64,000 bases of DNA from a virus: the IMG/VR virus record IMGVR_UViG_3300045988_160639; one strand, written 5' to 3'. Under the pieces are notes generated by a model, which had not been told where the DNA came from, made no database searches, and saw nothing but the letters and a program-made list of their open reading frames with translations. Position numbers and translations under genes: made by a program. The stretch's first letter is position 1. Every line of letters begins with the position of its first letter. Of this stretch, positions 2,921 through 47,794 are shown one piece after another.

Positions 2921-2929
2921 AAACTCACC

Positions 2930-3355
2930 TCAATTATAAGCAGTGGGCAACAGCTTATCATAAAATTCTGCTATCTTTGTATCAACGTAATCCAATTCTT
3001 CTTTTGCGTGTGCTTTATCAGCACTGGTATTATTAAGCGTTAAATCTTTTCCAATTATATTAGTACGCTTTATTATCCTATCATACTGACGTTCACAATA
3101 ATAACGCTTTATTGTGTAACCAAGTATTTGTATGTATAAATAAGGAAGTGGAATAAGATTTTCATTTTTATCATAATACAAAAATGAATCCGTGCCTTTA
3201 TCAAATACAAGAGGTTCTATTTCCCTTGAAAATTCCTCCACTGCCATACTAAACCATTGAAATACAAGGTCTGAATTAAGTTGAAATTTTTCTTGAAATG
3301 TGGCTTCAAAAACATTAACCACATCTATATATGTAGTGCTTGCTATTCTCACCAC
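2930..3355 (-). CDS. Hypothetical head-tail connector-sized protein
   Basis: 141-aa ORF in the late operon, tightly packed with its neighbours. Confidence 0.55.
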   Translation of the reverse strand: MVRIASTTYIDVVNVFEATFQEKFQLNSDLVFQWFSMAVEEFSREIEPLVFDKGTDSFLYYDKNENLIPLPYLYIQILGYTIKRYYCERQYDRIIKRTNIIGKDLTLNNTSADKAHAKEELDYVDTKIAEFYDKLLPTAYN

Positions 3356-3365
3356 ATCCTTTCTT

Positions 3366-3902
3366 TTATACTGTCATTCCACAAAGAGCTTCACATTCTC
3401 TTATTTTATTGAAATCATTAAATCCACACTCTCTAATGAGTTTAATAAGAAGAACCTTTTCTGCCTGAGTAGTAAATGTTTTATATATTTCATTTCTAAA
3501 ATCATCAAGACCATTAATTGCAAAAATCTTCTTTACCTTATTCTTATCAATAAGTTCAGATGTGATGTCAAGATAATCTCTTGTTGCCTTATCGTCTATA
3601 TAAATAGTAGCGTGAGTACCATCACCATCACCACGCAGAAGCTTATTGCTGTTTTCATACTGAGAAATTACCTCTGCACGAGATACACGGACAGAACCGC
3701 CAGCATTAATATTTACTTCACCATTAGACTCAATCTTATTAAAGCCCACCATCCAATTAGCAAGATTTTTAAGTGTTATCTTTTCTTCCATACTAAGGGG
3801 CTTTGTTTCTGTAACTTCAACAGGGATTTCATTAGGAATTGTATTTTCAACAGTCTTTGCATTATTAGACGTTTTTGCCATATCTACAATATATCCTTTC
3901 AT
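3366..3902 (-). CDS. Hypothetical late protein
   Basis: 178-aa ORF. An alternative start is at 3881 (MAKTSNN). It is the first gene after the 0.4-kb non-coding gap that follows the capsid gene. Confidence 0.55.
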   Translation of the reverse strand: MKGYIVDMAKTSNNAKTVENTIPNEIPVEVTETKPLSMEEKITLKNLANWMVGFNKIESNGEVNINAGGSVRVSRAEVISQYENSNKLLRGDGDGTHATIYIDDKATRDYLDITSELIDKNKVKKIFAINGLDDFRNEIYKTFTTQAEKVLLIKLIRECGFNDFNKIRECEALCGMTV

Positions 3903-3940: not shown

Positions 3941-4347
3941 AGCATTAAATTTTATAATTTATATTAAAGGTTTGTATCAGAAAGCATACCAATCTGGAAC
4001 TCTCTGCCCTTTGTAACATCAGTTGCACTATATTTTTATTCAACGAGGGACGCTAATCCTCGCCAGTTTTAAACTTCTTTATATTTCTATAAAGGATAGA
4101 CTATATCTTTACCCATTAAGGGCAAGCACCACTTCCATACGCTTGTATGTACTTCCTTACGGAATAGTCGTTGAACTTTACCTTTCGGTCTTAGCTGCTG
4201 ATTATCCATTGTTAAAGTGTTTAGGTTTTAACCTTGCACTATCTATTCAATTTTTTCTACTTTCGTAACATTCACGCTTATACCCTTTAAGGTATTACGT
4301 TGTAGTTTGAATAGTTTTAAGAGTTCCCAGCAATTCAATGCTTATTT
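3941..4347 (-). ncRNA. Candidate structured non-coding RNA downstream of the capsid gene
   Basis: About 400 nt with no credible ORF in an otherwise tightly packed late operon, and locally higher GC. On the minus strand there are several short hairpins capped by GNRA tetraloops (ACC-GAAA-GGT, TTCC-GUAA-GGAA) plus other stems (CGAGG...CCTCG, TACC...GGTA). Confidence 0.3.
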
Positions 4348-5442
4348 TTACGCACATTTTTCAATATACGGAGTCTGCAAAATGTTAAACTCAATATCCA
4401 TACGAGTGAGTACATGACCGGTTGTTATATCATTACCACTGAATGTAGTCAGTCCACCTCTTGTCCAAGACTTAATAGGAGAACCGTACTGACCACCAGT
4501 AGGAACAACAATGGCAAGACCTGCATCGAGCATAGTATCAAAATTATCGCCAGTAGCATTGAGAGAAGAATAATCATAAGGATTTGTCATCTCTGCAAGA
4601 ATAGTTCCGTTATATGCACCGAGAATACCCTTTGTGCGAATATCTCTAAGGTCTTCTGCGGAAATGCCCTGTGTATAACCATATCTGGAAGAATTATATA
4701 CAAATTCAGAGTTATAACCTGCCCAAGGAGTAAACTGCTGAAGAAGTGCATAATCACCAATTACGGTAGCACCTGTGCCAAGTCTTCTTACCTTCTTGAG
4801 AACATCATCAACACCAGCCTTAGTGAGACCTGCACCCTCAAAGAAATACTTTACAGGAGTAGCGTTCTTAACAGCATTGTAAGCATTAGTTACAATAGCC
4901 TTCTTCATCTTATTGATAATATCAATTCTTACCTGATTCTTGCCTTCGTTCTCCTTAGACATATCACCAAGCATAAGTCTGCGGTAATCGGTAGCCCAAC
5001 CGCCAGAAATAGTCTTTGTGCCTACTGCATACTTGTCACCCGTAATTGCAGGGAAAATTACATCAGCGTTAAGTGCCTGCTCACGAGACTTGTCACCAAT
5101 AAACTTCCAAGACTCTACCTCAATAGACTCGTCATATCCAAGAGCTTCAAAATCACCGAATACAGCAAGATTCTGAATTTCTGCGGTAAGAAGAGGCTCA
5201 ACAGAATACTTTCTAATAGTGTTAAGTTCTGCAAGAGACTTAGGATCACCATTAGCAATACCTGCACCAAGTTCCTTGAGTCTATTTACAACAGCGTCTG
5301 TCTTCTTACCGTATTTAGACGTGTCCTTACCATCTGTAAGGGCGGAGAAAATTTCTACAATAGGAGAATTAGGCTTAATCTCATTTGTAAGAGTGACATC
5401 AGAATCACGTCTTACGTTGTTCATTTCAAAAGTCATATCCAT
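4348..5442 (-). CDS. Major capsid protein (HK97-fold type inferred)
   Basis: 364-aa ORF in the canonical portal-scaffold-capsid order. Codon usage looks highly expressed. Confidence 0.6.
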   Translation of the reverse strand: MDMTFEMNNVRRDSDVTLTNEIKPNSPIVEIFSALTDGKDTSKYGKKTDAVVNRLKELGAGIANGDPKSLAELNTIRKYSVEPLLTAEIQNLAVFGDFEALGYDESIEVESWKFIGDKSREQALNADVIFPAITGDKYAVGTKTISGGWATDYRRLMLGDMSKENEGKNQVRIDIINKMKKAIVTNAYNAVKNATPVKYFFEGAGLTKAGVDDVLKKVRRLGTGATVIGDYALLQQFTPWAGYNSEFVYNSSRYGYTQGISAEDLRDIRTKGILGAYNGTILAEMTNPYDYSSLNATGDNFDTMLDAGLAIVVPTGGQYGSPIKSWTRGGLTTFSGNDITTGHVLTRMDIEFNILQTPYIEKCA

Positions 5443-7164: not shown

Positions 7165-8736
7165 TCAACTTGTACTCGGTTTAGGCTGATTATTTGTATC
7201 ATTTCCTTGTGATATTAAAGTGTTATCATTGGTTACGTTTTCAACATTGGGTCTTCCACCCTTATCTTCTTCGTTTGAAATACCATCTCCTGATGAATTA
7301 TAAGATGTTGGATGAGGGGTGTACTTATCATCCCATTTTTCTGACTTTTCCATATCCATAAGTGATAGATAAGCATTTAAATCCCAGCCAACAGATGAAA
7401 TCCAAGCAGACTTGCTACCACTACCAGACATATAGAGTTCTTTATTCAAAGCAACAAATTTGTCTCTATTTACAAGACTTGTGGGTAAATAATAAATACT
7501 AATTTCATTATTTTTGTCTTTCACTATATTTTTGTTAATAACATAAGACAATTCATCTGCTATTTCAGTAACCCAAGTATAAATTTTGCTAAACAGAAGC
7601 TCAAGACTAAGCTGCTGAGATGAATAATTTCCACTTTCACCATCAAGAAGACCTAATGCAAAGCCTAAACCCATTGCAATATTTGAATTAAGTTTAGGTT
7701 CAATTTCTTCATTCAGAATATCAACACTTGTATCAACCGAATCAATCTTTGTACCAGCTGCAACCGTAAAGAATGATGTTCCTCCACGATTATTTTTTGT
7801 CATTACTGCACTTTTAACTGTATTATGCTGATTTTCCTGCTGGTCTTTTGTAAGACTGCATCTACCCTTTTCGCCCTCCGGCAACGTCTGATAAATAATT
7901 TTATTGTTCACTTCGCCAAGAACACTTCTTTTAGTAGTAGTAAGATAATCATTATAAAAAATATCAATTAAGGCAGAAATTGTTATAGGTCTTCCATAGG
8001 GTTCACGTTTATTACTTTTGATTTTATGTACAACTGTTTTATTATTATCTAAAACAATCCAATTACCAACAGTTTTACCATTATTCCATTTTTCATATCC
8101 ATTACGAATTTCAAAAGGATAACACTTTAACCTATTTGTCTTCTTCTTCTCATTAGTGAATTGATTGAAATAATCCAAATTAAAAGCAATAACAGGTCGA
8201 TTATTCTTATAACCTCTTATTTTTACATAGTCTACTGGAAGTGGAATCATAGCTACTGAAACATCAGAATTGTTCAGTTCCATAATGCTTGTAATTTCAT
8301 AATCTGAAACATATTTTGTATTATCAGGACTTTGTGCTTGAATATCAAAGTAATAATAGCAAGCTCCATCAAGACAATCCCTAAATAAAAAGTCTCGTAT
8401 GATATTCTTGTCGTGAATATCACATAAAATACTTTCTACCTTTTGCTTATTATCTTTGACTTTCTTTTTGCTTTTACCAGTTGAAGTAAGTATGTGTGAA
8501 AGGCAGGGGAGAGATACTATATAATCAACTGCATTTGACACAATAGGATTTGTATTATATACTCTACGACTAAGTTTTCTTATTTGCTCATTATTTGTAA
8601 TAGGATCGGATAGTATATCTTTGATTTGTTCAGGAGTATAACAAGAAAATAAATCGAAATTCATATTTGCATATACAATATTATTCCATTGTGAATTATA
8701 TTCATAAGAGGGTTCTTTGTTTTCTATATCACTCAT
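7165..8736 (-). CDS. Portal protein
   Basis: 523-aa ORF immediately downstream of the large terminase. Size and position are typical of a portal. Confidence 0.6.
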   Translation of the reverse strand: MSDIENKEPSYEYNSQWNNIVYANMNFDLFSCYTPEQIKDILSDPITNNEQIRKLSRRVYNTNPIVSNAVDYIVSLPCLSHILTSTGKSKKKVKDNKQKVESILCDIHDKNIIRDFLFRDCLDGACYYYFDIQAQSPDNTKYVSDYEITSIMELNNSDVSVAMIPLPVDYVKIRGYKNNRPVIAFNLDYFNQFTNEKKKTNRLKCYPFEIRNGYEKWNNGKTVGNWIVLDNNKTVVHKIKSNKREPYGRPITISALIDIFYNDYLTTTKRSVLGEVNNKIIYQTLPEGEKGRCSLTKDQQENQHNTVKSAVMTKNNRGGTSFFTVAAGTKIDSVDTSVDILNEEIEPKLNSNIAMGLGFALGLLDGESGNYSSQQLSLELLFSKIYTWVTEIADELSYVINKNIVKDKNNEISIYYLPTSLVNRDKFVALNKELYMSGSGSKSAWISSVGWDLNAYLSLMDMEKSEKWDDKYTPHPTSYNSSGDGISNEEDKGGRPNVENVTNDNTLISQGNDTNNQPKPSTS

Positions 8737-8768: not shown

Positions 8769-10427
8769 TTAGTTTATGAAAGTTGCATAATCATAATCAG
8801 AATTATCTATCTCTTGAGCAAATTTGTTTATATACCATAACATATAAATCATAGCAGATACTCGGTCTTTATCTATTTTTTTTACAACCTTATCAATAGT
8901 AATTCCACCATTATTAAGGTGCTTCATTTTTAGATTAGCTGCTTCTTCTATAAAGGCATCAGTTTCCATAAACGGTCTGACATTATCGTCAAATTTATCC
9001 CATTCGCTATCTTCAAAATCACAATCCTGACGTTTTTCAAGAAGTTTTAATTTTCCACTATCTACCATATCTATAAATATTGTTACTATTTCACTCTGAC
9101 AACTTTGTGCTTTGAGGTTATATAATACTTTTGGAGAATTAGGTATTTCTGGTGTGTTATCATCGTTCATTGTATCCCAACAACCTATGCTTTCTTCTGT
9201 TATAGGGTCAAACGATTCCTTCGACAACTCATCAATTAAACCTGCACCAAGACCATTACCATCTACAACAACAGCTTTGGCATTGTACTTTTTGAATATC
9301 TGTTTTACTTTAATTGCTTGTGCTGTGAAGTTTAATATATTAGGAATTTTAATAATATTTACAACATCAATAGATACAATTCTACTTTTATCAGCACTTC
9401 TTCTCACTTTACCAACAACAACAGACGATTGGTTATTTGATGTTTTCTGACTTCGTGCTACGTCAACTCCAAGATAATATTCATCTGTTTCGTTCTTTGA
9501 TTCTATCACTGCTTCCGTAAGAGTACGACAATTCATCAATCTATTTATATTTACTAATGCTCCATCAGAGCAACCAACCCATTCTTGTTCATAGTTTTGT
9601 GCAAAAGCAACAACTGATGAATTTTTCTTTTTTGAAAGTATTTTACTTTTGTTACTACCTCTTCCATACCAACACGGAAGTTGCCAGTTACTTCCAAGAA
9701 CAATTTTCCCCTTCAAATTTTCCATATCATCAATCATAGTAATACTACGTTGATATTCGTCAGAACCTCTAAATCCTGCTGTTGTGAAAAAATGAATTTG
9801 CTGATTTAACTCCATAGGGTCAACGATTGCCAGTTTTCCAACTGTAAGTCTGGGAACTTCAACAACAGGTTCAAGTGCATCTTGAAATAATACATTATTC
9901 AATAAAGCTGACTCCTCTATCTTTAAACGTCTACGTCGTTGTCCTTTAGTAGACTGAGCGTTAGCAATAGCATCAATAGTTGAACCATTCTTAAATTCAA
10001 TAAATGCGTTACCTTTAGAAAACTTGGGGTCATCTTGAAGTTCATTTTTTAATAATGGATATAATTTTGATATTTCATTCCATTTTGCTTTAAGCAAATC
10101 AGCAGCGTTCTCTTTTGTCTGTGCCGACAATGCTAATTCAATGTTAGGGAAAAGCATAGCTACAACAACCATTGATAAAACCTCATCAAATGTTTTACCA
10201 TAACCACGAGAAAATACCCCATACATACTCATAAATCTTACATCACAACGCAAAAAAATTCGTTGATCTAAATGTAGATTTATACCGCCTGTTTCGGGCT
10301 TCATTAAGTCCAAAAGTAAATCAGGATAGAATTTTGCCCAACTTATAAAATTATAATAGTTATGAAGATTTTTACCAAAGATACTATCACTATTTTTTTC
10401 AAACTCTTTTATTCTCTGCTCATTCAT
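8769..10427 (-). CDS. terL: Terminase large subunit
   Basis: 552 aa with a Walker A-like GVFSRGYGKTF near the N-terminus and a C-terminal nuclease-sized domain. It sits upstream of the portal. Confidence 0.75.
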   Translation of the reverse strand: MNEQRIKEFEKNSDSIFGKNLHNYYNFISWAKFYPDLLLDLMKPETGGINLHLDQRIFLRCDVRFMSMYGVFSRGYGKTFDEVLSMVVVAMLFPNIELALSAQTKENAADLLKAKWNEISKLYPLLKNELQDDPKFSKGNAFIEFKNGSTIDAIANAQSTKGQRRRRLKIEESALLNNVLFQDALEPVVEVPRLTVGKLAIVDPMELNQQIHFFTTAGFRGSDEYQRSITMIDDMENLKGKIVLGSNWQLPCWYGRGSNKSKILSKKKNSSVVAFAQNYEQEWVGCSDGALVNINRLMNCRTLTEAVIESKNETDEYYLGVDVARSQKTSNNQSSVVVGKVRRSADKSRIVSIDVVNIIKIPNILNFTAQAIKVKQIFKKYNAKAVVVDGNGLGAGLIDELSKESFDPITEESIGCWDTMNDDNTPEIPNSPKVLYNLKAQSCQSEIVTIFIDMVDSGKLKLLEKRQDCDFEDSEWDKFDDNVRPFMETDAFIEEAANLKMKHLNNGGITIDKVVKKIDKDRVSAMIYMLWYINKFAQEIDNSDYDYATFIN

Positions 10428-11527
10428 TCGTCATCACCGTTTTTATAATCCTTTGGTAATTTTATAAATGTTTCAACAGAAGGTCTGTTTTTTTTAGAGG
10501 TATCATCCGTAAAAATCCCATAGGGGTCTCCATATTGAGATAAATAATCATCTTTCATCTTATCATAAAAAGCATATACGTCTTTATATTCGCACAATGG
10601 AAGCCCTTTAAGCCTACGGCAATAGTTAATATAACACCAAATAATAAAATCTGGTGCATCATTGGGCTGGTATCTAAATCTTGGTAAGATTTCAACAATA
10701 TCTACTGCTTGCTCACAAGCTTTGGATATTTCGGAGATACAAGTTACACCACCTTGTAAATCAGCTTGTGTGAGTTGTTTGGGTGTAAGTTTTGCTTTAT
10801 CGGCAGCTTCTTGTGCTGCTTTGTTCCATTTGTCCGCAGATCCTACGTCCCCTTGTGCAGTGGCTTCCTCTTCTTTTACTTTAAAACGTACATATGTAGC
10901 GAGTGCTTCTTCGTGCAAATTTGTTTGTATAGAATAATTTTCTTTGAGTTTGTTGAACTTTTTAACCATTTTTCTATACTGCGTTTTTGTATATCCATCA
11001 CCAAACAAATCTAAAACATCATCGGTTACTACAAAGTCATCGACTTGCTTTACATACACTTCCTCATTCTTATTAACGGTCTTACCGGTTGTTGTAACTG
11101 CCGAAGAAACAGTTTTACCTTGAGATAAAAGATTTATAGAATCGAGAAATCCCAATTTTGAGTATTGCGGTAAAGTTCCTATATTTTTAAAATAACACCC
11201 TATAATATCAGTTCTACCTTTTCCAAGTTCAACCGATTTTTGTACTTCTTTTATAGCAGAGTCCAAAGCTTCTGGAACATAAGGCTTATCCATCAACATT
11301 AACTTCTGTTTAAACATTTCAACGTTTATAGTTCCATCTGAATTGCAAGACCCTGTTTTAATACAATTTTTACAAATATCGTAAGTTTTACCATCGCTTG
11401 AAACAGATGATATTTTGGAGGGCGATGATGAACTCACAACGTAGAATTGTGATAAATTTTTTTCTTTTCCACATTCTCGACATACTTTTTTTCCAACAGG
11501 TGCTTTAGCTCGTTTTTTTTGTGGCAT
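10424..11527 (-). CDS. Zn-ribbon protein upstream of terL (possible small terminase / DNA-recognition subunit)
   Basis: Start reset to MPQKKRAK at 11527 (GGAGGTGGG SD). Has a CRECGKEK...CKNC zinc ribbon. Overlaps the terL start by 4 nt. Confidence 0.45.
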   Translation of the reverse strand: MPQKKRAKAPVGKKVCRECGKEKNLSQFYVVSSSSPSKISSVSSDGKTYDICKNCIKTGSCNSDGTINVEMFKQKLMLMDKPYVPEALDSAIKEVQKSVELGKGRTDIIGCYFKNIGTLPQYSKLGFLDSINLLSQGKTVSSAVTTTGKTVNKNEEVYVKQVDDFVVTDDVLDLFGDGYTKTQYRKMVKKFNKLKENYSIQTNLHEEALATYVRFKVKEEEATAQGDVGSADKWNKAAQEAADKAKLTPKQLTQADLQGGVTCISEISKACEQAVDIVEILPRFRYQPNDAPDFIIWCYINYCRRLKGLPLCEYKDVYAFYDKMKDDYLSQYGDPYGIFTDDTSKKNRPSVETFIKLPKDYKNGDDE

Positions 11528-11595
11528 TATCCCACCTCCAATTTTTATTAATTTGGTCATCCTTAATTCCTAACACGGAACTTCAGATATTAATA

Positions 11596-11804: not shown

Positions 11805-12820
11805 TCATCCTTCAAATCCAAACATATCATTTATGACATCTTCATCTTTGTTCTTTAAGTATCCTTGGGTTGTTCCCACGTCTGTATGATGTGCCACTAC
11901 TCGGACGTGATCTAAATCAAACACCTTATTAGTTCCATCTGGATTTTTAAGCCTTTCATCCTGACCGGTAGATAAGCACTCCAAACGAGAATGTCTTATA
12001 CTATGTGGAAATATATTAACTTCTTCACCACGAATTTCAGATAATATCTTTGAGCATTTTAATATACGGTTGTAAAGGGCATCTTTGGTCACTTCCACCT
12101 TATTCTTACCGTGTCCGTTAATCCAAAGGCTTTCAATATCATCATTTCCACGTTCTTCAAGATATTGACGTATTAACTCTTTAGTGTCGTTTAGATAAAC
12201 AAGAGGAAATGTCTTGCCACGCTTTCCTTTAACAATATTTGTCTTGTTTCCATCAAGTAATCCTGCTTTCTTAACTTGGTATATTTCATTTCTTCTACCA
12301 GCAGAATCATAACTTAAACTCCATAAAACTGCTGTCTGTAAATCACCCATTTCAACAAGTTTATCTCTAACTGCTATAAATTCTTTAAACGTAAAGAAAA
12401 ATCGTCATCATTAGTTTTAACTCGTTCCCTCGGAAGACCTTTTACCTTTTTAGCATAATTGACATCATAATTGTATTCATCGTCCTCTTCGCAGTAAGTA
12501 AGCATACTGTTTACGGTCGCTTTAAGCCTATTTACTCTATTTGCCGACATATTACAATCTTCAGAAAGCCAAATACTCATATTTCTGAAATCTTTCTTGC
12601 TCATTTCAAGAATAGATTTATTTTTATGATGAAGTAATACATAAATTAAAATAAACCTTCCATCTTGAAAATAAGCTTCAATCGTAGAATTAGCTTTCTT
12701 TTGCTGTCTATATTCAGCGAGAAAATCTTCAAGTATAGCTTTATTTTCGGGATTTACTTGCTCCCAAAGTTCAGGAGTATAAACCCTATTATAAACACCT
12801 CTACTACGAGCCAATTTCAT
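11805..12820 (-). pseudogene. Tyrosine recombinase/integrase split by a -1 frameshift at a T5 run
   Basis: ORF 12374-12820 is the SAM-like N-terminal domain. ORF 11805-12350 carries AGRRNEI (Arg), HSIRHSR (HxxR) and HHTDVGTTQGYL (His...Tyr). The -1 frame reads continuously (FTFKEFIAVRDKLVEMGDLQ) across the A5 run at 12397-12401 (plus strand). Confidence 0.65.
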
Positions 12821-13476: not shown

Positions 13477-13758
13477 TTACTTACTTTCAGCAACTGTATC
13501 CTTGAACATCTTACCTGCCTTAAATGAAGGTACATTCTTCTCTGCTATTTCAATAGGCTTTCCGGTAGAGGGATTCACACCTGTTCTTGCAGTTCTCTTA
13601 TGCTTTTCAAAAGCACCAAAACCGACAAAATTTACTCTCTCACCAGCAGCAACACTATCAACAATAGTATCAAGAATCACTGTAAGCACCTCATCAATCT
13701 GTGCCTTAGAAAGCTCTGAGTTCTCTCTAACCTTTGTAATAAATTCAGCCTTTGTCAT
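13477..13758 (-). CDS. hup: HU/IHF-family DNA-binding protein
   Basis: 93 aa. The segment GFGAFEKHKRTARTGVNPSTGKPIEIAEKNVPSFKAGK matches the HU beta-arm signature. Confidence 0.85.
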   Translation of the reverse strand: MTKAEFITKVRENSELSKAQIDEVLTVILDTIVDSVAAGERVNFVGFGAFEKHKRTARTGVNPSTGKPIEIAEKNVPSFKAGKMFKDTVAESK

Positions 13759-13790: not shown

Positions 13791-14906
13791 TTAGTCTGCC
13801 ATCAGACTATAAATACACCTATCAGAACCGTCATAAACAATAAAGTTCTGACTTGGTTTTGTTATCTTACACAATGAAACGGCGTAATCGTCACTTCCAC
13901 ACAAATTACCATTAACAGTAACGAACACATCACAATCGTTTATATCCTTATAAGAATGTGTATGTCCAAGGTGAATTTCCTTTGGAAGTTTCTTATATAC
14001 ATTTGTAAAATCAGAAATTACAGTGGCAAGTTTATCATTCTGACCGTGTGCAACACAAATTAACTCACCATTGATTTCATATGATACAAAATCAAGACCG
14101 TGAGATGTAATGAGAGTTACACGCTTATCAAGTCTAAGCCTAAGAAATTCAGGAATAAGCATCTCGAAATTTTCAGATGTCGCACAAGCCTTCTTATCAG
14201 CGAAGCAACGACCATGATTGCCTAATGTGGTGACAACTTTAACATTCTCATAATATGGGATAAGCTTATTTATGACCTGTACAAGAAGTTCAGAAACACC
14301 TACTATCTGAGTGATAATATCAGCTTCTTCAACATTTCTTGACGATATATTTATAATACCGTCCAACATATCACCATTTATTTCAACAATAAGGTCTGTT
14401 ACACCGTGTTTCTTGCTCTTAGCAATAATCTTATCTACAATGATATTAGCACGTTCAACAGCAACATCTAAATCATAATAATTCCACTGATTATCTATTA
14501 GCTTGCCATAGTGCCAATCTGAAAACTGTGCAATACCATAAACTCTTTCTAATTTTATGCTTGACTTAAAATCATTCAACTTAATAGGTCTTAAATTCTT
14601 GATTTCTTCTTTGAGAACGTCTGTAAGTGTTTCAAATCTTGCTTCATCACGCAAAATTTTTCTCTTTTCTCTGAGAATGTCTGCATTTTTACAACGTTCT
14701 TTATATACTTCGTTTCTTAAAATTTCAAGACGTTCCTGTTCTTCAGTAGAACAACCCTCAGCAATCTTATTGACGAAATACTTATATACAGCATATCCAC
14801 CATAGCGACCGCCAGTAAATGATTTTCTAAGTACATCTGGATGAGTATTAGTGTTTAACTCATCAACCATATCCACCCAAGTTTTATTGTTCAGAGGATT
14901 ATCCAC
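13791..14906 (-). CDS. Calcineurin-like metallophosphoesterase
   Basis: Ordered motifs SDWHYG (DxH), NGDMLDG (GDxxDG), LGNHG (GNH) and LGHTHS (GHxH). Confidence 0.75.
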   Translation of the reverse strand: MDNPLNNKTWVDMVDELNTNTHPDVLRKSFTGGRYGGYAVYKYFVNKIAEGCSTEEQERLEILRNEVYKERCKNADILREKRKILRDEARFETLTDVLKEEIKNLRPIKLNDFKSSIKLERVYGIAQFSDWHYGKLIDNQWNYYDLDVAVERANIIVDKIIAKSKKHGVTDLIVEINGDMLDGIINISSRNVEEADIITQIVGVSELLVQVINKLIPYYENVKVVTTLGNHGRCFADKKACATSENFEMLIPEFLRLRLDKRVTLITSHGLDFVSYEINGELICVAHGQNDKLATVISDFTNVYKKLPKEIHLGHTHSYKDINDCDVFVTVNGNLCGSDDYAVSLCKITKPSQNFIVYDGSDRCIYSLMAD

Positions 14907-14968: not shown

Positions 14969-15151
14969 TTACAGTTTCTCACCATAAGAAACTGAAATCT
15001 TAACATCGGGCTTACCTACAAAATCCTTAATAAAGTCAGCAAGCACAACAGGCTCTTCCATATCTTCTACCTCGATAGTAATTATACCGTCATCAGTAGA
15101 AATAAGACCCTTTACGTCGCAACTATATTTTCTGTTAATTTTTGAAGCCAT
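14969..15151 (-). CDS. Hypothetical small protein
   Basis: 60-aa ORF with an AAGGAG SD upstream. Confidence 0.5.
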   Translation of the reverse strand: MASKINRKYSCDVKGLISTDDGIITIEVEDMEEPVVLADFIKDFVGKPDVKISVSYGEKL

Positions 15152-16496: not shown

Positions 16497-16572
16497 ATTA
16501 AAATTTTCCTTAAAAATAAGTTACTGTCACACGACAGCCCTATGTTTTACATAGGATATTTGATTTTTTGTT

Positions 16573-16709
16573 ACTGTCCCACAGCCGTACCTACTATAAG
16601 AAAAGGAGATAAAATATATTTTCAGGAGGTATATATTTATGAAAAGAGTTTGTAAAAGGAGATGAACCACAGTGGCTTGTGGATATAGTAGGTAGGGTTC
16701 TGGGACAGT
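16573..16709. repeat. 26-nt imperfect inverted repeat pair separated by about 85 nt
   Basis: ACTGTCCCACAGCCGTACCTACTATA (16573-16598) pairs with TATAGTAGGTAGGGTTCTGGGACAGT (16684-16709). A third GTTACTGTC copy with its own CTGTC-ACAC-GACAG hairpin lies near 16531. Confidence 0.6.
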
Positions 16710-16721
16710 AGGGATAGTTAG

Positions 16722-16916: not shown

Positions 16917-17026
16917 TCATAATAAATTTTTGTTTAATTTGTCAATTTACATTTGACTTATTGTGTGATATAGTATATACTAGGGGGCTTATTTAAAACT
17001 ATATCATATCATATATTAACAATAAT

Positions 17027-17072
17027 AGAAATCACCCACAAACCACATAGATACGTCATTTGTGGGTGATTT
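17027..17072. terminator. 15-bp stem hairpin terminator
   Basis: GAAATCACCCACAAA / TTTGTGGGTGATTTC, located just downstream of minus-strand gene 17097-17999. Confidence 0.6.
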
Positions 17073-17096
17073 CTATATTAAATAAAAATACGGAAA

Positions 17097-17999
17097 TTAC
17101 TTCTTTTTTCTCTTTCTATCGTATTCCTTCACATATTTATCTTGACATTCATTACACCTCTTCTTATTTTTTACTATACCGACAACTTCAAACTCAGTAC
17201 CACAATCACAACAAACAATGGTTTTTATATTCTTTTTCTCATATCCTTGACATTTATCACAATATATCTGATGATTAGATTTCTTATAAAACACATTGCC
17301 ACACTTATTGCATTTTCTAATTTTCTTATTACCGTTATACCATTCAAACCAATATCCAATATTATTATAATTAATTATTTCAAACGCAACCTCGCCAAAA
17401 TCACCATTATAATCAATCTGCTCCATAAAGTTCATTCTGATACAACCGCGATTGTAAAGCTGTAAATAACCCCTCTTAGCAAGTTTTGAAATGAGGTCTA
17501 TATTTATATCTACCTTACTCGAAATATTACTTATTTTCTTCAGGTTAGAATATCTTGATGTTCCACCTTTAAAATAAATGTTATCATAAGGTTCATCTGG
17601 TTTCTTGATTTCAAAGTATTCTTTATTAAGTTTATAGACTATAAGCAATGTAAACAACAGTTTCTTTTCATCAAGAGTCAGTTCTGCACTATTGAAATAA
17701 TTAATCTCACACTTTAGAACAGGAACACTTTCTATTGTTATTAATTGATTTTTCTTACAAGTAGAATAATCTATCGCCTTATTAACCACCTTGTAGTATC
17801 TCATTCTGTGATAATCTTTGATATATTTCTTACAAATATTATGTAGTTCATTCTTTCTATCTTCCTTTTTTCTTATATCAAGAATATCACGAAGATAAAG
17901 TGCCACAAGTTTAATTTCTGTGTTAAAATACTTTTTAGAAAATCCGTGTTTAATTATATTTTCAGCATAATCTAAGTCTTTATATTTAAACTCATTCAT
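17097..17999 (-). CDS. Hypothetical protein with C-terminal double zinc ribbon, translationally coupled to the RNAP-like gene
   Basis: 300 aa. Motifs CNKCGN...CDKC and CCDCGT...CNEC. Has a 4-nt overlap with the upstream 931-aa gene. Confidence 0.55.
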   Translation of the reverse strand: MNEFKYKDLDYAENIIKHGFSKKYFNTEIKLVALYLRDILDIRKKEDRKNELHNICKKYIKDYHRMRYYKVVNKAIDYSTCKKNQLITIESVPVLKCEINYFNSAELTLDEKKLLFTLLIVYKLNKEYFEIKKPDEPYDNIYFKGGTSRYSNLKKISNISSKVDINIDLISKLAKRGYLQLYNRGCIRMNFMEQIDYNGDFGEVAFEIINYNNIGYWFEWYNGNKKIRKCNKCGNVFYKKSNHQIYCDKCQGYEKKNIKTIVCCDCGTEFEVVGIVKNKKRCNECQDKYVKEYDRKRKKK

Positions 18000-20791
18000 A
18001 CTTCAACCTCCTGCACAGAATAGTTTTCACCCAAATATGTAACATTGCCGTTTTTATCAGGCATCGGAAACATCACTGTAGTTTTGTTCATTCTAAGTTT
18101 TTCATAAATATATCTACCTATTAACTCCCACATAACATCTTTACTTTTTTGAGGATTATTTATGTAAAAATAGTCAATTACATAATTAAACGCACAACAT
18201 ACGCTTCCGACAGAAGCTATAATATCATATGTATACTTTGAAAAATCAAATATGCCACGTTTATCCTTTTCTTTTTCTGCATTCTCAAACTGTAACTCTC
18301 TATAAAAAAGTAAACATTCATCAATAATTCCTGATACTTTTTTATAATCAGAATTATCATATTCAATATCGTATTTTAAATCTAATACAGCTTTATCAGA
18401 ACTTTCTTCTTTAATCTTTTTTGAAATTTCAAAGTTAATACCCTCTATGTATTTACAAAGCAAATTCATTGAACTATCGCTCATTGTAACAGGCATATAC
18501 TTATAATAATTATCTAAGAAAGTCATTTGTTCTGGGGTCTTTTGACTTAAATCAATTAAAGACTTTAAGGAAATACCAAAACGCTGTTTGCAAGCTGTTT
18601 CATTGCTATCAACATATTTATCATACTTCTTCTTACAATCAGGGTATCTGTATCTAAAGAAATATGGATATTTGTCAAGAAGAATACTATTATAAAACCT
18701 TATTTTCTCTATATCCTCTGGCGTATAGCTGTTCTTTTCAGCCGTTTTATCATCAGTTTTTCGATATTCAACCCATAATTTTGGAATACCCTTAACCTCT
18801 CGTCCCAGTTTAGTCTTATCAATCTGACAGCTCTGTGCTTTACAGCACTGGATTAACCTTGAATATGTAATTCTCCACATATCATTATCTTTGCCATATT
18901 TATCTTCAATTTCTTTAAGTAAAGCGTAAGCATTACTACTCTTATTTGTTATTTGACCAATAATTGAACCAAAACCAAACTTGTCGGCATTCTGAATATC
19001 TTCTTTTGTAAAAATTTTCTTTTCAGGCTTTGGAGCATCATACGTCATTGTTAATTCATTTCTGTAAACACCCTTAATAATTGTGGGGTCAGACGTTGTT
19101 GCTAAAATATCAAGATCAAAATCTGCACCCCCGAAATTCTGCACTGTATGACCAAACCAATTTATTATAATGCCAGTTTTGCAATACCTGTACCATTTCT
19201 CAGTTTCAGCATTCTTTTTTAAATTCATAACAACGTGTTCCGATCTGAAAGTGAGGGGAGACCTCATACCGTCTACCTGTGTTACGTTGCGCTCATTCCA
19301 ATAGTTTGAATAAAATTCATCTTTATCAAGTAATCCAGTTGGTTCAATACCACAAACGTGTTGCATATAAGCATATGGGTCAGATACTAAAGTCTGAAAA
19401 TTACCCTTGACATAAATATCACCCATGCAACCCTTTTTTATTTTATTCTTTATCAAATCCCTTATTTTTGTACGAATAAACTTATCATTCTTCAAATCGG
19501 GATTTACCACAAGTGACTTTAACCAATAATTATCACTACTTCTCAAAAAATTGTTTATGCTTTCTTCTGTATTATTTGCTCCAAGCAAAAACAGCAACAT
19601 ATATTCAAAGTTATCATATGAAACACCCGTTATCCAATCAACAAAAGGCTTGCATAGTTCCTTTATGTCAGTTTCGTTCAAGTTCAAAGTCTGTAAGAAC
19701 TGGTAATTCATCTTTAGAATGTTTTTACACTCTTTAGGTGCATACTGGGGAATACCCCATTTCAAACCGTTTTTGTGGCATTTTTCAAGGTAATCATCGA
19801 CACCATTATAACAATTCCAAAGCTTAAACTGCGATTCAGAAATAATAATGTCGTAATCTCGAAGATCAACTTTTATATAATTTCCACTTTCATCTTTATA
19901 AATCGTATCTACTATGTAATTGCCACCGTTTATTTCTTCACAAAATTCGTGAATGGGGAACGTACAAAGCATACCCTTTATAAAGCTTTGCCTTAATCCA
20001 AATTGTGAGGGTATATAATCTAATCCTAACTCATTAGCCCATTTCTTAGCCTGTCTTGGAGATATAAGTCCCATTCCGTCAGTTCTGTTAAAAGTCTGTG
20101 TAACGGTCTTATCTTCTACTAAATCATCGGTGTTTCCTGCTATCTCAGTTACAAAATGTACGTCAAAGGTATCGGTATTTTCAAAATCTTTAACTACAAT
20201 AAACTTTGGTTCACTTACAACCTGAGTTGCAGAACTGCTAAGTCCAAAATAGGCATTATATTTACTTGCAGCGAGAGGAATATTCTTGTTTCTGTCATTA
20301 TCAAGTCTGTGAATTACTTCATCAATAATATCATCTGGACAAACCACAATAGTTGATTTACGAGCTTGTCCAGCAGAACAACTCAACCTGTGATAAACCT
20401 TGCCGTTTATTTCAACGCCATTTTCACAAATATAATCATAATCTTTTGTGCTTTCCATAACGATAGTTACATAATCTTTTACATATAGCATATCGTCTAT
20501 TTCAGATTGTACTTTGTTTCTGTTAGCAACAATCTTTTCAATGTCATCTTTTCCAAGAGATTTTGAATTTGAAAGCTTTTTATCATAAATTTCTCTGTCT
20601 GTATATAATCCCTCAACCTTATCAAAATCAATAACCTGCCCACGGACTTCTCTTATTGTACGAAGCATCTGACTATCAGCCAATGCAATTACACATTTTA
20701 ATTTTTTAGCTTCATCAAATTCCATATTAATTTTATACCCAAATTCCTTCAGAAGCGAAGATTTAAATTTCAGTGTATATATCTGTCTCAT
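17996..20791 (-). CDS. Single-subunit two-barrel RNA polymerase homolog (YonO / cellular RdRP family)
   Basis: 931 aa. IPSQFGLRQSFIKGML resembles the RdRP-family PSxFQxRxxxxKG barrel motif. MRSPLTFRSEHVV...NFGGADFDLDIL resembles the R-x-P ... (N/G)ADFDGD metal-binding loop of the beta-prime/RdRP barrel. Confidence 0.65.
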   Translation of the reverse strand: MRQIYTLKFKSSLLKEFGYKINMEFDEAKKLKCVIALADSQMLRTIREVRGQVIDFDKVEGLYTDREIYDKKLSNSKSLGKDDIEKIVANRNKVQSEIDDMLYVKDYVTIVMESTKDYDYICENGVEINGKVYHRLSCSAGQARKSTIVVCPDDIIDEVIHRLDNDRNKNIPLAASKYNAYFGLSSSATQVVSEPKFIVVKDFENTDTFDVHFVTEIAGNTDDLVEDKTVTQTFNRTDGMGLISPRQAKKWANELGLDYIPSQFGLRQSFIKGMLCTFPIHEFCEEINGGNYIVDTIYKDESGNYIKVDLRDYDIIISESQFKLWNCYNGVDDYLEKCHKNGLKWGIPQYAPKECKNILKMNYQFLQTLNLNETDIKELCKPFVDWITGVSYDNFEYMLLFLLGANNTEESINNFLRSSDNYWLKSLVVNPDLKNDKFIRTKIRDLIKNKIKKGCMGDIYVKGNFQTLVSDPYAYMQHVCGIEPTGLLDKDEFYSNYWNERNVTQVDGMRSPLTFRSEHVVMNLKKNAETEKWYRYCKTGIIINWFGHTVQNFGGADFDLDILATTSDPTIIKGVYRNELTMTYDAPKPEKKIFTKEDIQNADKFGFGSIIGQITNKSSNAYALLKEIEDKYGKDNDMWRITYSRLIQCCKAQSCQIDKTKLGREVKGIPKLWVEYRKTDDKTAEKNSYTPEDIEKIRFYNSILLDKYPYFFRYRYPDCKKKYDKYVDSNETACKQRFGISLKSLIDLSQKTPEQMTFLDNYYKYMPVTMSDSSMNLLCKYIEGINFEISKKIKEESSDKAVLDLKYDIEYDNSDYKKVSGIIDECLLFYRELQFENAEKEKDKRGIFDFSKYTYDIIASVGSVCCAFNYVIDYFYINNPQKSKDVMWELIGRYIYEKLRMNKTTVMFPMPDKNGNVTYLGENYSVQEVEV

Positions 20792-25822: not shown

Positions 25823-25850
25823 ATTATATCATATTTCATAAAAATGTCAA
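25823..25850 (-). promoter_or_regulatory. Sigma-A-type promoter (TTGACA-16-TATAAT) reading leftward
   Basis: The reverse complement reads TTGACA tttttatgaaatatga TATAAT. Confidence 0.6.
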
Positions 25851-28761: not shown

Positions 28762-29028
28762 CATAAAGTGCTTTATCTGCACAAATTAAAAAAATTTTGG
28801 GAGGTTAAAACAATTTTGAATTTGGTGCGTATGCGGTAGCAGAACATTAAACACGTCAGGGCGTGTATAAAAAGGCATTTAGGCTCTGAGCGTTTACGGG
28901 GATTTTTCCCCGTAAGGTATGCACAATAAGCATAACAGCACGGTTAAACGGCTGTAAGCCGTTAGTCTCTCGCAATAGTGGGAGACAGCTAAATAAATAA
29001 AACGTGTATTTGATAGGAGGGTTTTAAA

Positions 29029-29322: not shown

Positions 29323-29428
29323 TTGCAGAGCATTGCAGGCGGTGCAATTCCGCTTGTAATAATGCAGCTTAACGGAAACGTTAAAAGGTTGCAAGCCCTT
29401 AAAAATTGAATTGATGGAGGTTTTAAAT

Positions 29429-32996: not shown

Positions 32997-33110
32997 AAAG
33001 TTGTCCGAGCAGCTATAAACAGTCCATTAAGCTCGGAGCGTTTGGCAGTCTGAGTAAGGCTGTCAAGGTTGGAAAAATCAAAGTAGGAAAGAATATGGAG
33101 GAAATAAATT

Positions 33111-47005: not shown

Positions 47006-47080
47006 TTGGGATTAGTATAATGAGAAGTACATCAGCCTTTGACACTGATAGTTTCGGGGCAGAGCCGAAATCCCAAACCA
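47006..47080 (+). tRNA. tRNA-Gln (anticodon UUG), non-canonical T-loop
   Basis: TTGGGAT TA GTAT AATGAGAA GTAC A TCAGC CTTTGAC ACTGA TAGT TTCGG GGCAGAG CCGAA ATCCCAA A CCA. Confidence 0.65.
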
Positions 47081-47150: not shown

Positions 47151-47224
47151 GCACCATTAGTTCAATAGTAGAACAAACGACTTTTAATCGTTAAACATCG
47201 GGGCAGAACCGATATGGTGTACCA
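47151..47224 (+). tRNA. tRNA-Lys (anticodon UUU), non-canonical T-loop
   Basis: GCACCAT TA GTTC AATAGTA GAAC A AACGA CTTTTAA TCGTT AAAC ATCGG GGCAGAA CCGAT ATGGTGT A CCA. Confidence 0.7.
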
Positions 47225-47474: not shown

Positions 47475-47551
47475 CTCCCAATAGTCCAATCGGCAGAGAC
47501 ACAGAACTTAAAATTCTGACAGTGTGGATTCGAGTTCCACTTGGGAGACCA
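47475..47551 (+). tRNA. tRNA with anticodon UAA (Leu codon UUA) but a short variable arm
   Basis: CTCCCAA TA GTC CAATCGGCAGA GAC A CAGAA CTTAAAA TTCTG ACAGT GTGGA TTCGAGT TCCAC TTGGGAG A CCA. The T-loop is canonical. Confidence 0.65.
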
Positions 47552-47709: not shown

Positions 47710-47794
47710 GCTCCTATGGTGGAATTGCAAGACACGCTTGACTCAAAATCAAGTACCGAAAGGTGTGACGGTTGGAATCCGTCTGGGAGTACCA
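47710..47794 (+). tRNA. tRNA-Leu (anticodon CAA), type II with a long variable arm
   Basis: GCTCCTA TG GTG GAATTGCAAGA CAC G CTTGA CTCAAAA TCAAG TACCGAAAGGTGT GACGG TTGGAAT CCGTC TGGGAGT A CCA. Confidence 0.65.

Follow-up and report, generated by a model that had tools for sequence, protein, structure and literature searches.

The question raised by the locus described here is whether a phage entrusts the transcription of its late genes to a single-chain relative of the cellular RNA polymerases, and whether such an enzyme works alone or with a dedicated partner. The locus lies on the IMG/VR virus record IMGVR_UViG_3300045988_160639, in a stretch of 64,000 nucleotides (nt), called the window below. 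On its minus strand, an open reading frame (ORF) of 931 amino acids (aa) encodes what is almost certainly an intact member of the YonO family of two-barrel RNA polymerases, and is directly followed by a gene for a 300-aa zinc-ribbon protein (the partner). An earlier reading of the letters alone (the sequence-only reading) had placed the ORF at the coordinates that the ORF list also gives, and had quoted three motifs from it, all of which were recovered by translating sub-ranges of the ORF. The gene and its catalytic elements are as follows.

17996..20791, minus strand: long-form YonO-like two-barrel RNA polymerase gene, 931 aa, ATG start, without a C-terminal zinc ribbon (ORF list, Pfam, PHROG, YonO match, AlphaFold, Foldseek).
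20078..20080, minus strand: codon of D238 in TDGMG, the fourth Asp of the catalytic set, located in the first (beta-like) barrel and corresponding to QDE-1 D709 and Rpb2 D837 (alignment, spacing).
19967..20014, minus strand: residues 260-275, IPSQFGLRQSFIKGML, the barrel 1 basic motif (R267, K272, G273), equivalent to QDE-1 R738/K743 (translation; invariant in the 96-sequence alignment described below).
19229..19267, minus strand: residues 509-521, MRSPLTFRSEHVV, the barrel 2 R-x-P element (R510, P512), equivalent to QDE-1 R962/P964 (translation; alignment).
19103..19138, minus strand: residues 552-563, NFGGADFDLDIL, with the metal-binding triad loop (translation).
19109..19123, minus strand: DFDLD, the metal-binding Asp triad D557/D559/D561, inside NFGGADFDLDIL (invariant in the same alignment; aligns to YonO DNDGD).
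18809..18823, minus strand: IDKTK (I657, D658, K661) in the C-terminal helical domain, the second apparent mobile-intron target in relatives (invariant in the same alignment).

The resemblance of these motifs to those of two-barrel polymerases is not a matter of chance, because the Pfam RdRP family (RNA-dependent RNA polymerase, PF05183) matches the protein well above its curated gathering cutoff (47.4 against 23.8 bits, E 1.6e-12; residues 116-681, profile positions 56-560 of 582), and because the motif residues are invariant in a 96-sequence alignment (A1) of the window protein, 59 further members of the window clade and 35 YonO-clade proteins. The same precomputed match is carried by most of the close homologs, and the PHROGs assignment is to phrog_8308 (E 2.8e-142), a family of function not known. 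Among 50,697 phage records searched by tblastn, 42 match the polymerase, headed by an unannotated protein of Bacillus phage BUCT082 (45.6% identity over the full length) and followed by proteins of Clostridium phage c-st and of Enterocloster, Thomasclavelia and Psychrobacillus phages; SPbeta yonO and its relatives are found at 25-26% identity (E 2e-20). The kinship with YonO, at first proposed from the motifs, is thus seen as a direct match, and equally by BLASTP (E 1e-26, query residues 121-616, 26% identity). In pairwise alignment, GADFDLD of the polymerase pairs with QFDNDGD of YonO, MRSPLTFR with LRSPHLFR, and FGLRQSFIKGML with FMVRLPWVKGLL. The distance between the two barrel motifs, put at about 250 aa beforehand, is 243 residues from R267 to R510. 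Taken alone, the polymerase adds another member to the already described YonO-like branch, and its enzyme class is known.

Along the whole length of A1, 44 columns are invariant, including D238, R267, K272, G273, R510, P512, D557, D559 and D561. Eight residues have been described as invariant in all two-barrel polymerases (QDE-1 D709, R738, K743, R962, P964 and D1007/1009/1011; Ruprich-Robert & Thuriaux 2010, PMC2919709), and all eight are present in the window protein as D238, R267, K272, R510, P512 and D557/D559/D561, with spacings (29 residues for D238-R267, 5 for R267-K272) equal to those of QDE-1 D709-R738-K743 (PMC2919709). An exhaustive HMMER search of 1.84 billion representatives gave 1372 clusters at E <= 1e-3, 376 of them at E <= 1e-30, and substitutions were counted in the best 150 of the 1372 clusters, among the representatives covering each position. 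The triad positions 557, 559 and 561 are Asp in 135, 129 and 128 representatives, respectively, with no substitution, so that the triad, on whose conservation in homologs the sequence-only reading had staked its case, is kept throughout. D238 is Asp in 143/143, and G239 is likewise free of substitution; K272 and G273 are kept in 145/145, R510 and P512 in 146/146, K661 in 121/121, D658 in 123/124 and R267 in 139/144 (substituted in 5/144). A profile alignment pairs D238 with SDGIG, and IPSQFGLRQSFIKGML with PSAFQIRYGGYKG, of RDR2. In YonO itself, mutation of the DNDGD triad abolishes activity (PMC5467207).

In many relatives, the polymerase gene is split at the Asp triad (559/561) and/or at D658/K661 by insertions of 270-1000 nt, as in the related loci L046, L058, L061, L074, L077 and L044 and in the phage records MT835481 (H2), c-st (H3) and Enterocloster phages (H6-H10). 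Insertions at 658/663 occur in L044, L074 and L077; in L074, whose gene has two insertions, these carry a GIY-YIG-like ORF (7775-8449) and one that is HNH-like (9043-9618). Inteins are excluded, since the reading frame changes across most junctions; judging from these frame changes and the endonuclease ORFs, the insertions look like mobile introns homing into catalytic sites. No Rfam intron model matched the insertions, even at E <= 1. Interruption at the catalytic sites explains the separate PHROG families for the two halves of the protein and the many 'truncated' representatives ending in ...G[AS]D. The window gene is intact, without insertion.

Searching PDB sequences with the single protein gave nothing, and with the family profile only marginal RDR1/RDR2 matches, for which reason structures had to be compared. 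The AlphaFold2 model of the polymerase (mean predicted local distance difference test (pLDDT) 90.9, predicted template modelling score (pTM) 0.85) contains beta-rich modules at ~190-320 and ~460-570, which hold the motifs. With Foldseek, all 21 PDB matches at E <= 0.001 are to QDE-1 or RDR2 (E 7.6e-18 to 6e-13, probability 1.0, 757-960 columns). The check proposed at the outset, a double-psi beta-barrel fold comparable with QDE-1, accordingly comes out in favour of the assignment over ~900 columns, in a comparison made at the whole-fold level. Beta-prime-type subunits (bacterial, poxviral and eukaryotic) match the model weakly (E 0.04-0.2, template modelling (TM) score < 0.1). A search of a viral structure library is headed by 'RdRP' proteins of uncultured phages, and the crAss-like and phi14:2 virion polymerases match faintly (E 0.007-0.05). 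No solved YonO-type structure turned up in the PDB sequence searches or in Foldseek.

Other polymerase classes were considered and rejected. For the multisubunit beta/beta-prime type, there is no Pfam RNA_pol_Rpb1/Rpb2 match, the fold similarity is weak and both barrels lie in one chain; flap, clamp and trigger-loop homology was not detected in the polymerase. For a T7-like right-hand polymerase, there is neither an RNA_pol PF00940 match nor such a structure among the Foldseek matches. Assignment to the crAss-like/N4-like virion class was set aside on account of the faintness of the structural matches and the position of the gene in an early-type operon.

The second half of the question concerns the gene directly 3' of the polymerase, which, as had been noted from the letters, encodes a 300-aa protein with two zinc ribbons (two CxxC...CxxC tetrads). 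Its elements are the following.

17097..17999, minus strand: conserved 300-aa partner gene (helical N-domain, ~1-195; NIGYWFEWYN motif; two zinc ribbons; basic C-terminal helix).
17996..17999, minus strand: ATGA overlap of the polymerase stop and partner start, which fits translational coupling.
18007..18012, minus strand: AGGAGG Shine-Dalgarno sequence of the partner, inside the polymerase coding sequence, 7 nt 5' of the partner ATG (sequence).
17250..17312, minus strand: partner zinc ribbon 1 (C230, C233, C247, C250; partner-family alignment A2).
17145..17213, minus strand: partner zinc ribbon 2 (C263, C266, C282, C285; A2), followed by the basic tail.

Within A2, C230, C233 and C247 of ribbon 1 are invariant and C250 is nearly so; ribbon 2 is missing in some relatives, its tetrad being kept where it is present. 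By these tetrads, a predicted metal site, the partner is classed as a zinc-ribbon protein. Its model (pLDDT 86.4) has short beta strands at 227-238 and 258-273, and the helical N-domain of ~190 aa is conserved in the family. The fold has no significant match in PDB (best E 0.7), and no Pfam or NCBIfam family matches the partner above cutoff. Several identities were tried and rejected: a zinc-finger identity from a profile search of PDB sequences, in which the matches were to generic Cys patterns only; a sigma-70/TFIIB-type factor, in view of the lack of sigma or TFIIB homology by sequence or fold; and an HNH homing endonuclease, suggested by a weak PHROG match (E 7e-4) in the ribbon region, given the absence of an HNH Pfam match and the fixed distribution of the gene.

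What ties the partner to the polymerase is its distribution. In 72 of 75 diverse IMG/VR viral loci with room for a partner gene, the family hidden Markov model (HMM) finds it directly 3' of the polymerase on the same strand, down to 29-35% polymerase identity; the loci without a detectable partner are L076, L086 and L087. The gene right after the BUCT082 polymerase is 32% identical to it (E 6e-42), and equivalents also follow the polymerase in L010 and L012. The predicted partner start lies between -41 and +32 nt from the polymerase stop in 70 loci, the ATGA (-4) overlap being the commonest arrangement (25/70), and the genes flanking the pair are not conserved across related loci. A third conserved component 5' of the polymerase was rejected: all that the upstream genes of BUCT082 and L012 have in common is a weak CoiA-like motif (E 0.02), and at this place the window carries a DNA methyltransferase gene.

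The ribbons are distributed in a complementary manner, a C-terminal ribbon on the polymerase chain being found in 34/35 proteins of the YonO clade versus 0/60 of the window clade. Residues 260-300 of the partner (ribbon 2 and basic tail) pair with YonO 796-834 in hhalign (probability 84%, E 7e-6), and nothing else aligns. The partner is not a split-off C-terminal half of YonO, a possibility rejected on the grounds that the likeness covers the last 39 columns only and no YonO-clade protein matches the partner HMM. A fusion of the polymerase with a complete partner is seen in a single representative, P0305 (1173 aa; partner HMM positions 6-251, E 8e-35). The pairing of a partner with a polymerase lacking the C-terminal ribbon hints at two components rather than single-peptide sufficiency. 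The suggestion that the partner may be a cofactor thereby gains strong genomic support as an inferred role, and we regard this, judging from gene order and sequence, as somewhat the better bet; that it acts specifically in initiation or promoter specificity can be proposed only tentatively. The conserved two-gene cassette is a new form of a known YonO-like system, and no mention of a partner gene, cofactor or promoter for YonO-like enzymes was found in open-access papers and bioRxiv.

What this cassette may do can be judged from the precedent of Bacillus phage SPbeta, whose YonO is a strict DNA-dependent, highly processive RNA polymerase that strongly prefers DNA templates with either Mg2+ or Mn2+ (PMC5467207). 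YonO is made after induction and acts on late genes, being essential for SPbeta plaques and for 37 late genes, with a start site upstream of yonK (PMC5467207). The enzyme alone elongates efficiently, but its reconstitution was one of elongation on scaffolds, and the promoter and any need for a factor were left open (PMC5467207). Its transcript begins with a non-coding leader of ~1.2-1.4 kilobases (kb).

A natural replacement connects the two forms of the enzyme. BUCT082 is a Spbetavirus in which the yonO slot, between the yonP-like and HU genes, holds a 515-aa ORF, a long-form polymerase and a partner, this being the only polymerase-like place in the genome. The 1.5-kb HU-yonK non-coding region is 94% identical between BUCT082 and SPbeta. 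The P_YonO primer-extension primers map to L001 (SPbeta) 8919 and ~9140-9165, the forward primer being exact in BUCT082, and the primer-extension region is 95% identical between the two phages. The P_YonO core (L001 9025-9165) is 78-95% identical in 11 loci with a long-form polymerase and partner, 0.6-1.6 kb 3' of the partner. Both forms therefore face the same late leader, which supports the functional equivalence of the long form plus partner with YonO, and implies a promoter specificity that is common to both forms or is supplied by something common to both.

The sequence TCATTTATGARGGT occurs twice in this region, ~155 nt apart (L001 ~8885-8900 and ~9045-9060), with both copies identical in BUCT082, and is a candidate element of the YonO promoter. 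Orphan Rfam motifs lie between the cassette and the first late gene at L001 10018-10083, L002 (BUCT082) 8632-8697, L029 12100-12166 and L046 12476-12629, comprising DUF3800-VIII in Bacillus phages and drum plus DUF3800-XI in L046. In SPbeta, ~260 nt separate the DUF3800-VIII motif from yonK further downstream, and ~1 kb separates it from the mapped P_YonO region further upstream, which places it inside the long leader of the YonO-dependent transcript; it may be part of the 'unannotated non-coding RNA' of the 2017 paper (PMC5467207).

In the window, the cassette stands between an early-type operon and a late module on the same strand. The minus-strand block upstream runs in the order 401-aa ORF, Bro-N protein, small ORFs, DNA methyltransferase, polymerase and partner, and is bounded by two signals.

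25823..25850, minus strand: sigma-70-type promoter before the early block, TTGACA, 16-nt spacer, TGnTATAAT (12/12 consensus, extended -10 TG; consensus match only).
17028..17073, minus strand: terminator-like hairpin after the partner, 15-base-pair arms GAAATCACCCACAAA / TTTGTGGGTGATTTC, T-rich tail (RNA fold -35.3 kcal/mol, z = -8.2).

Judging from its consensus, the former is probably the host RNA polymerase promoter of the operon that ends in the polymerase and partner, and the hairpin probably marks the end of this operon; in SPbeta, an annotated stem-loop directly follows yonO. On the 3' side of the cassette come, on the same strand, a 64-aa ORF, a 225-nt structured spacer and genes for ClpP-like, PhoH, YonK-like, YonJ-like, HU, YonG_N, terminase-like and portal proteins.

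16497..16721, minus strand: structured non-coding spacer that separates the cassette from the first genes of the late module (RNA fold -59.1 kcal/mol, z = -6.95).
14969-15151, minus strand: YonK-like gene (against BUCT082 YonK, E 3e-5).
13791-14906, minus strand: YonJ-like metallophosphoesterase gene (against SPbeta YonJ, E 5e-14).
13477-13758, minus strand: HU gene (Pfam on identical contigs).
10424-11560, minus strand: YonG_N protein gene (Pfam on identical contigs).
8769-10427, minus strand: terminase-like gene (weak PHROG terminase large subunit match, E 7e-9).
7165-8736, minus strand: portal gene (PHROG portal, E 9e-54).

The YonK-like, YonJ-like and HU genes are counterparts of the first genes around the SPbeta YonO-dependent late operon, and the YonG_N, terminase-like and portal genes are presumed targets of the polymerase. 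The spacer at 16497-16721 is C-rich, with a ~27-base-pair imperfect inverted repeat around ~85 nt, after which come two small hairpins that end in GACAGTAAC and a T-run; it is kept only in close relatives (91-99%) and is a candidate late leader or regulatory region.

Starting from the family membership, the conserved catalytic residues, the predicted fold, the synteny and the co-occurring partner, we favour with considerable confidence the explanation that a YonO-type polymerase transcribes the late module. Host RNA polymerase would transcribe the early minus-strand operon, probably from 25850-25823 to the hairpin at 17073-17028, with the polymerase and the translationally coupled partner as its last two genes. 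In the active site, D238 and D557/D559/D561 would hold two Mg2+ ions, and R267, K272 and R510 would bind the nucleotide. The phage enzyme would then transcribe the DNA of the co-oriented late module (ClpP-like, PhoH, YonK, YonJ, HU, YonG, terminase, portal and more) independently of the host, in the manner of SPbeta YonO, an assumption based on the homology and synteny with that system. The partner would most likely bind the polymerase and supply a zinc-ribbon and basic-tail module for engagement of DNA or the promoter, or for initiation; SPbeta YonO appears to carry a similar ribbon/tail module fused at its own C-terminus. By analogy, the polymerase is quite probably a DNA-dependent late-gene transcriptase, expected to use DNA rather than RNA as template and also to be insensitive to rifampicin, since no beta-subunit homology extends beyond the barrel.

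Several points weigh against this explanation. The polymerase and YonO share no more than ~26% identity, and the solved enzyme nearest to it in structure, QDE-1, accepts RNA as well as DNA as template; the activity favoured for the window protein and its long-form relatives is argued from analogy. The link between the partner and the YonO C-terminus consists of 39 columns of generic ribbon, the N-terminal ~200 aa of the partner having no YonO counterpart, the lone fusion P0305 could stem from a one-base sequencing error at an ATGA-type junction, and adjacency by itself is no proof of physical interaction. On the side of the late module, a promoter motif for the phage polymerase was not found in the window, and the ClpP-like and PhoH genes between the cassette and YonK make it uncertain where the late unit begins. 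Within the presumed late unit there is also a strong terminator-like hairpin (15 pairs, T-rich tail), at 13059-13026 on the minus strand after a 128-aa ORF; if the whole module is read through, the polymerase must ignore this hairpin, or a second promoter follows it.

The search for a promoter gave the following. There are no intergenic recurrent direct repeats window-wide, the GACAGTAAC hairpins have just two exact occurrences in the window, and the SPbeta P_YonO region and the TCATTTATGARGGT repeat are absent from it. A two-copy likeness between the spacers 16917-17096 and 2921-3365 is weak and AT-rich and fits host-type hexamers. Rfam gave no match at E <= 0.1 in the region of the window between the cassette and the late genes, including 16497-16721, and the DUF3800-VIII and drum RNAs are found only in other lineages, not in the window.

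Among the other explanations, the one that survives best takes the partner to be an independent DNA-binding regulator, or a protein with another operon function, and lets the polymerase work alone like the 'single-peptide' YonO. We regard it as a serious, if minority, possibility, given that YonO by itself elongates well in vitro, that no sigma, TFIIB or other factor domain can be recognized in the partner, which has no structural match either, that its likeness to the YonO C-terminus is confined to a generic ribbon, and that L076, L086 and L087 have no detectable partner. Against it, the adjacency and the tight start-stop coupling last over very deep divergence, at which the flanking genes are not conserved; the C-terminal ribbons are distributed complementarily; the cassette enters the yonO slot of BUCT082 as a unit; a fusion protein exists; and whether promoter-specific initiation requires a factor was not settled by the YonO study. 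Going further in the opposite direction, one may speculate that long-form YonO-like polymerases, the majority of this large family, are obligate two-component enzymes, consisting of a minimal two-barrel catalytic chain and a dedicated zinc-ribbon initiation or promoter-specificity subunit with a new fold, a possibility that we consider less likely than not. That subunit would be analogous to sigma or TFIIB but unrelated to them, the C-terminal ribbon of YonO would be its fused, reduced counterpart, and, if this is true, a 'core plus factor' design would exist in a lineage thought to have split from the cellular RNA polymerases at a time preceding the last universal common ancestor.

It is improbable that the polymerase is instead an RNA-dependent RNA polymerase, copying phage or host RNA into double-stranded or antisense RNA for regulation or counter-defence. 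The sole curated family match does bear the name 'RNA dependent RNA polymerase', the closest solved structures are RDR2 and QDE-1 of RNA silencing, and the RdRP label is attached to relatives in Enterocloster, Thomasclavelia and Psychrobacillus phages; these annotations, however, are transferred from the Pfam name. YonO, the sole characterized phage member, prefers DNA and is responsible in vivo for late-gene transcription (PMC5467207), the window gene sits in the same slot before the late module, and the 45.6%-identical relative replaces yonO before a P_YonO region that is 95% identical.

Still less credible is a polymerase packaged in the virion and injected for early genes, like N4 vRNAP, crAss-like gp66 and the P23-45 tape-measure fusion. 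Other phage two-barrel single-chain polymerases are indeed virion enzymes (PMC10770324), and Foldseek gives weak matches to crAss-like and phi14:2 proteins; yet these matches are far weaker than the YonO-type ones, a consensus host-type promoter precedes the early-type operon that contains the gene, which is not placed among the structural genes, the protein has ~930 aa without fused structural modules, and YonO is made after induction and works on late genes. That the enzyme makes primers or non-coding RNAs for replication or packaging, instead of mRNAs, is equally far-fetched: two-barrel cores also occur in replicative enzymes such as archaeal PolD (according to a review), the spacer after the cassette is strongly structured and the SPbeta YonO transcript starts with a long non-coding leader, but loss of YonO silences 37 protein-coding late genes, the downstream genes in the window are same-strand morphogenesis genes, and nothing in the window links the polymerase gene to replication functions.

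The source of the locus can be narrowed down from its relatives. An identical polymerase is found on at least 69 contigs, mostly of 20-200 kb and always with the same neighbours, and IMG/VR contigs of 100-133 kb carry copies that are 91-99% identical; when 20 kb of the window was compared with cultured phages by megablast, no match was obtained. We infer a host among gut Clostridia because relatives with 50-60% identity lie in metagenome-assembled genomes of Lachnospiraceae, Clostridiales and Angelakisella, and the polymerase would be encoded by an uncultivated SPbeta-like phage or prophage of ~100-130 kb.

Other features of the window are recorded for completeness. A tyrosine-recombinase-like gene at 11805-12820 (minus strand) is split into 148-aa and 181-aa ORFs in the window and in L004, L005, L007 and L008 but whole (338 aa) in L003 and L006, and is hence a polymorphic disruption. 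A group I intron (RF00028, 69 bits, full model) at 4077-4397 (minus strand), in the late/structural region, fills most of the 445-nt gap between the ORFs 4348-5442 and 3366-3902, possibly two exons that belong to a single gene. Amid the small plus-strand ORFs of the early region sit two pistol ribozymes (28851-28922 and 32999-33073; 67.5 and 55.6 bits) and a type-P5 twister ribozyme (29324-29400; 39.6 bits), all on the plus strand and above the Rfam gathering scores. Four transfer RNA genes are clustered on the plus strand (47006-47077, 47151-47221, 47475-47548 and 47710-47791), and such genes are also found after the polymerase cassette in many related loci.

The interest of the locus lies in the context of its polymerase. 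YonO-type enzymes are the smallest known relatives of the cellular RNA polymerases and a model for their single-chain ancestor, and how they find promoters has been a standing question since 2017. In most of the YonO-like family, the polymerase is one of two genes in a cassette whose other product is an undescribed zinc-ribbon partner, YonO having a related ribbon fused at its end, and the cassette and the Bacillus swap make the factor need and promoter recognition of YonO directly testable in a tractable host. The cassette also offers a compact orthogonal transcription module for Firmicutes, probably one insensitive to rifampicin.

The window system is worth comparing with the known two-barrel polymerases. 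Predicted in 2003, the YonO-like branch was the subject of a survey in 2010 and of characterization in 2017, with homologs in c-st and 0305phi8-36 listed in 2021. SPbeta YonO is homologous to the window polymerase over residues 121-616, has the same eight catalytic residues, and shares the invariant I657, D658, K661, P709, N776, W888 and G892 of the window protein through the C-terminal domain; its slot is also the same, with a hairpin after the gene and yonK/yonJ and the late genes downstream, and like the window protein it is without multisubunit-polymerase domains beyond the barrels. However, YonO has 839 aa and the window protein 931 aa, the C-terminal CxxC...CxxC ribbon and basic tail are present in YonO but not in the window protein, and SPbeta has no overlapping 300-aa zinc-ribbon gene, whereas the window has one. 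The window host lineage is also a different one, gut Clostridia, and the P_YonO sequence is absent from the window.

Long-form YonO-like proteins akin to the window polymerase are UAW07825.1 of BUCT082, of the same length class, with the partner UAW07826.1 directly downstream, and BAE47877.1 of Clostridium phage c-st (~30% identity over the full length, same length class), which has already been listed as a YonO-like enzyme (PMC7824862). In contrast to the window system as described here, the BUCT082 and c-st proteins are annotated as hypothetical and the partner is undescribed, and the c-st gene, like several others, is broken up at the catalytic triad, while that of the window is uninterrupted. 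No structures match better than those of QDE-1 (2J7N, 7Y7P-T) and RDR2 (7ROZ, 7EU0, 7W82), which fall in the same Pfam family and have the eight invariant residues at much the same spacings, but they are only 12-14% identical and work in silencing pathways, on RNA or single-stranded DNA; of the two, QDE-1 forms a homodimer, RDR2 docks on Pol IV, and neither has a phage context or a zinc-ribbon partner. With the multisubunit beta/beta-prime enzymes, the window polymerase shares a catalytic centre between two double-psi beta-barrels with a DxDxD loop, but it has both barrels in one chain. Zinc ribbons are common as polymerase-docking modules (TFIIB, TFIIS and TFE). If the partner is a cofactor, the cassette would parallel the multisubunit RNA polymerases with sigma or TFIIB, by functional analogy only, in having a core and a separate initiation factor.

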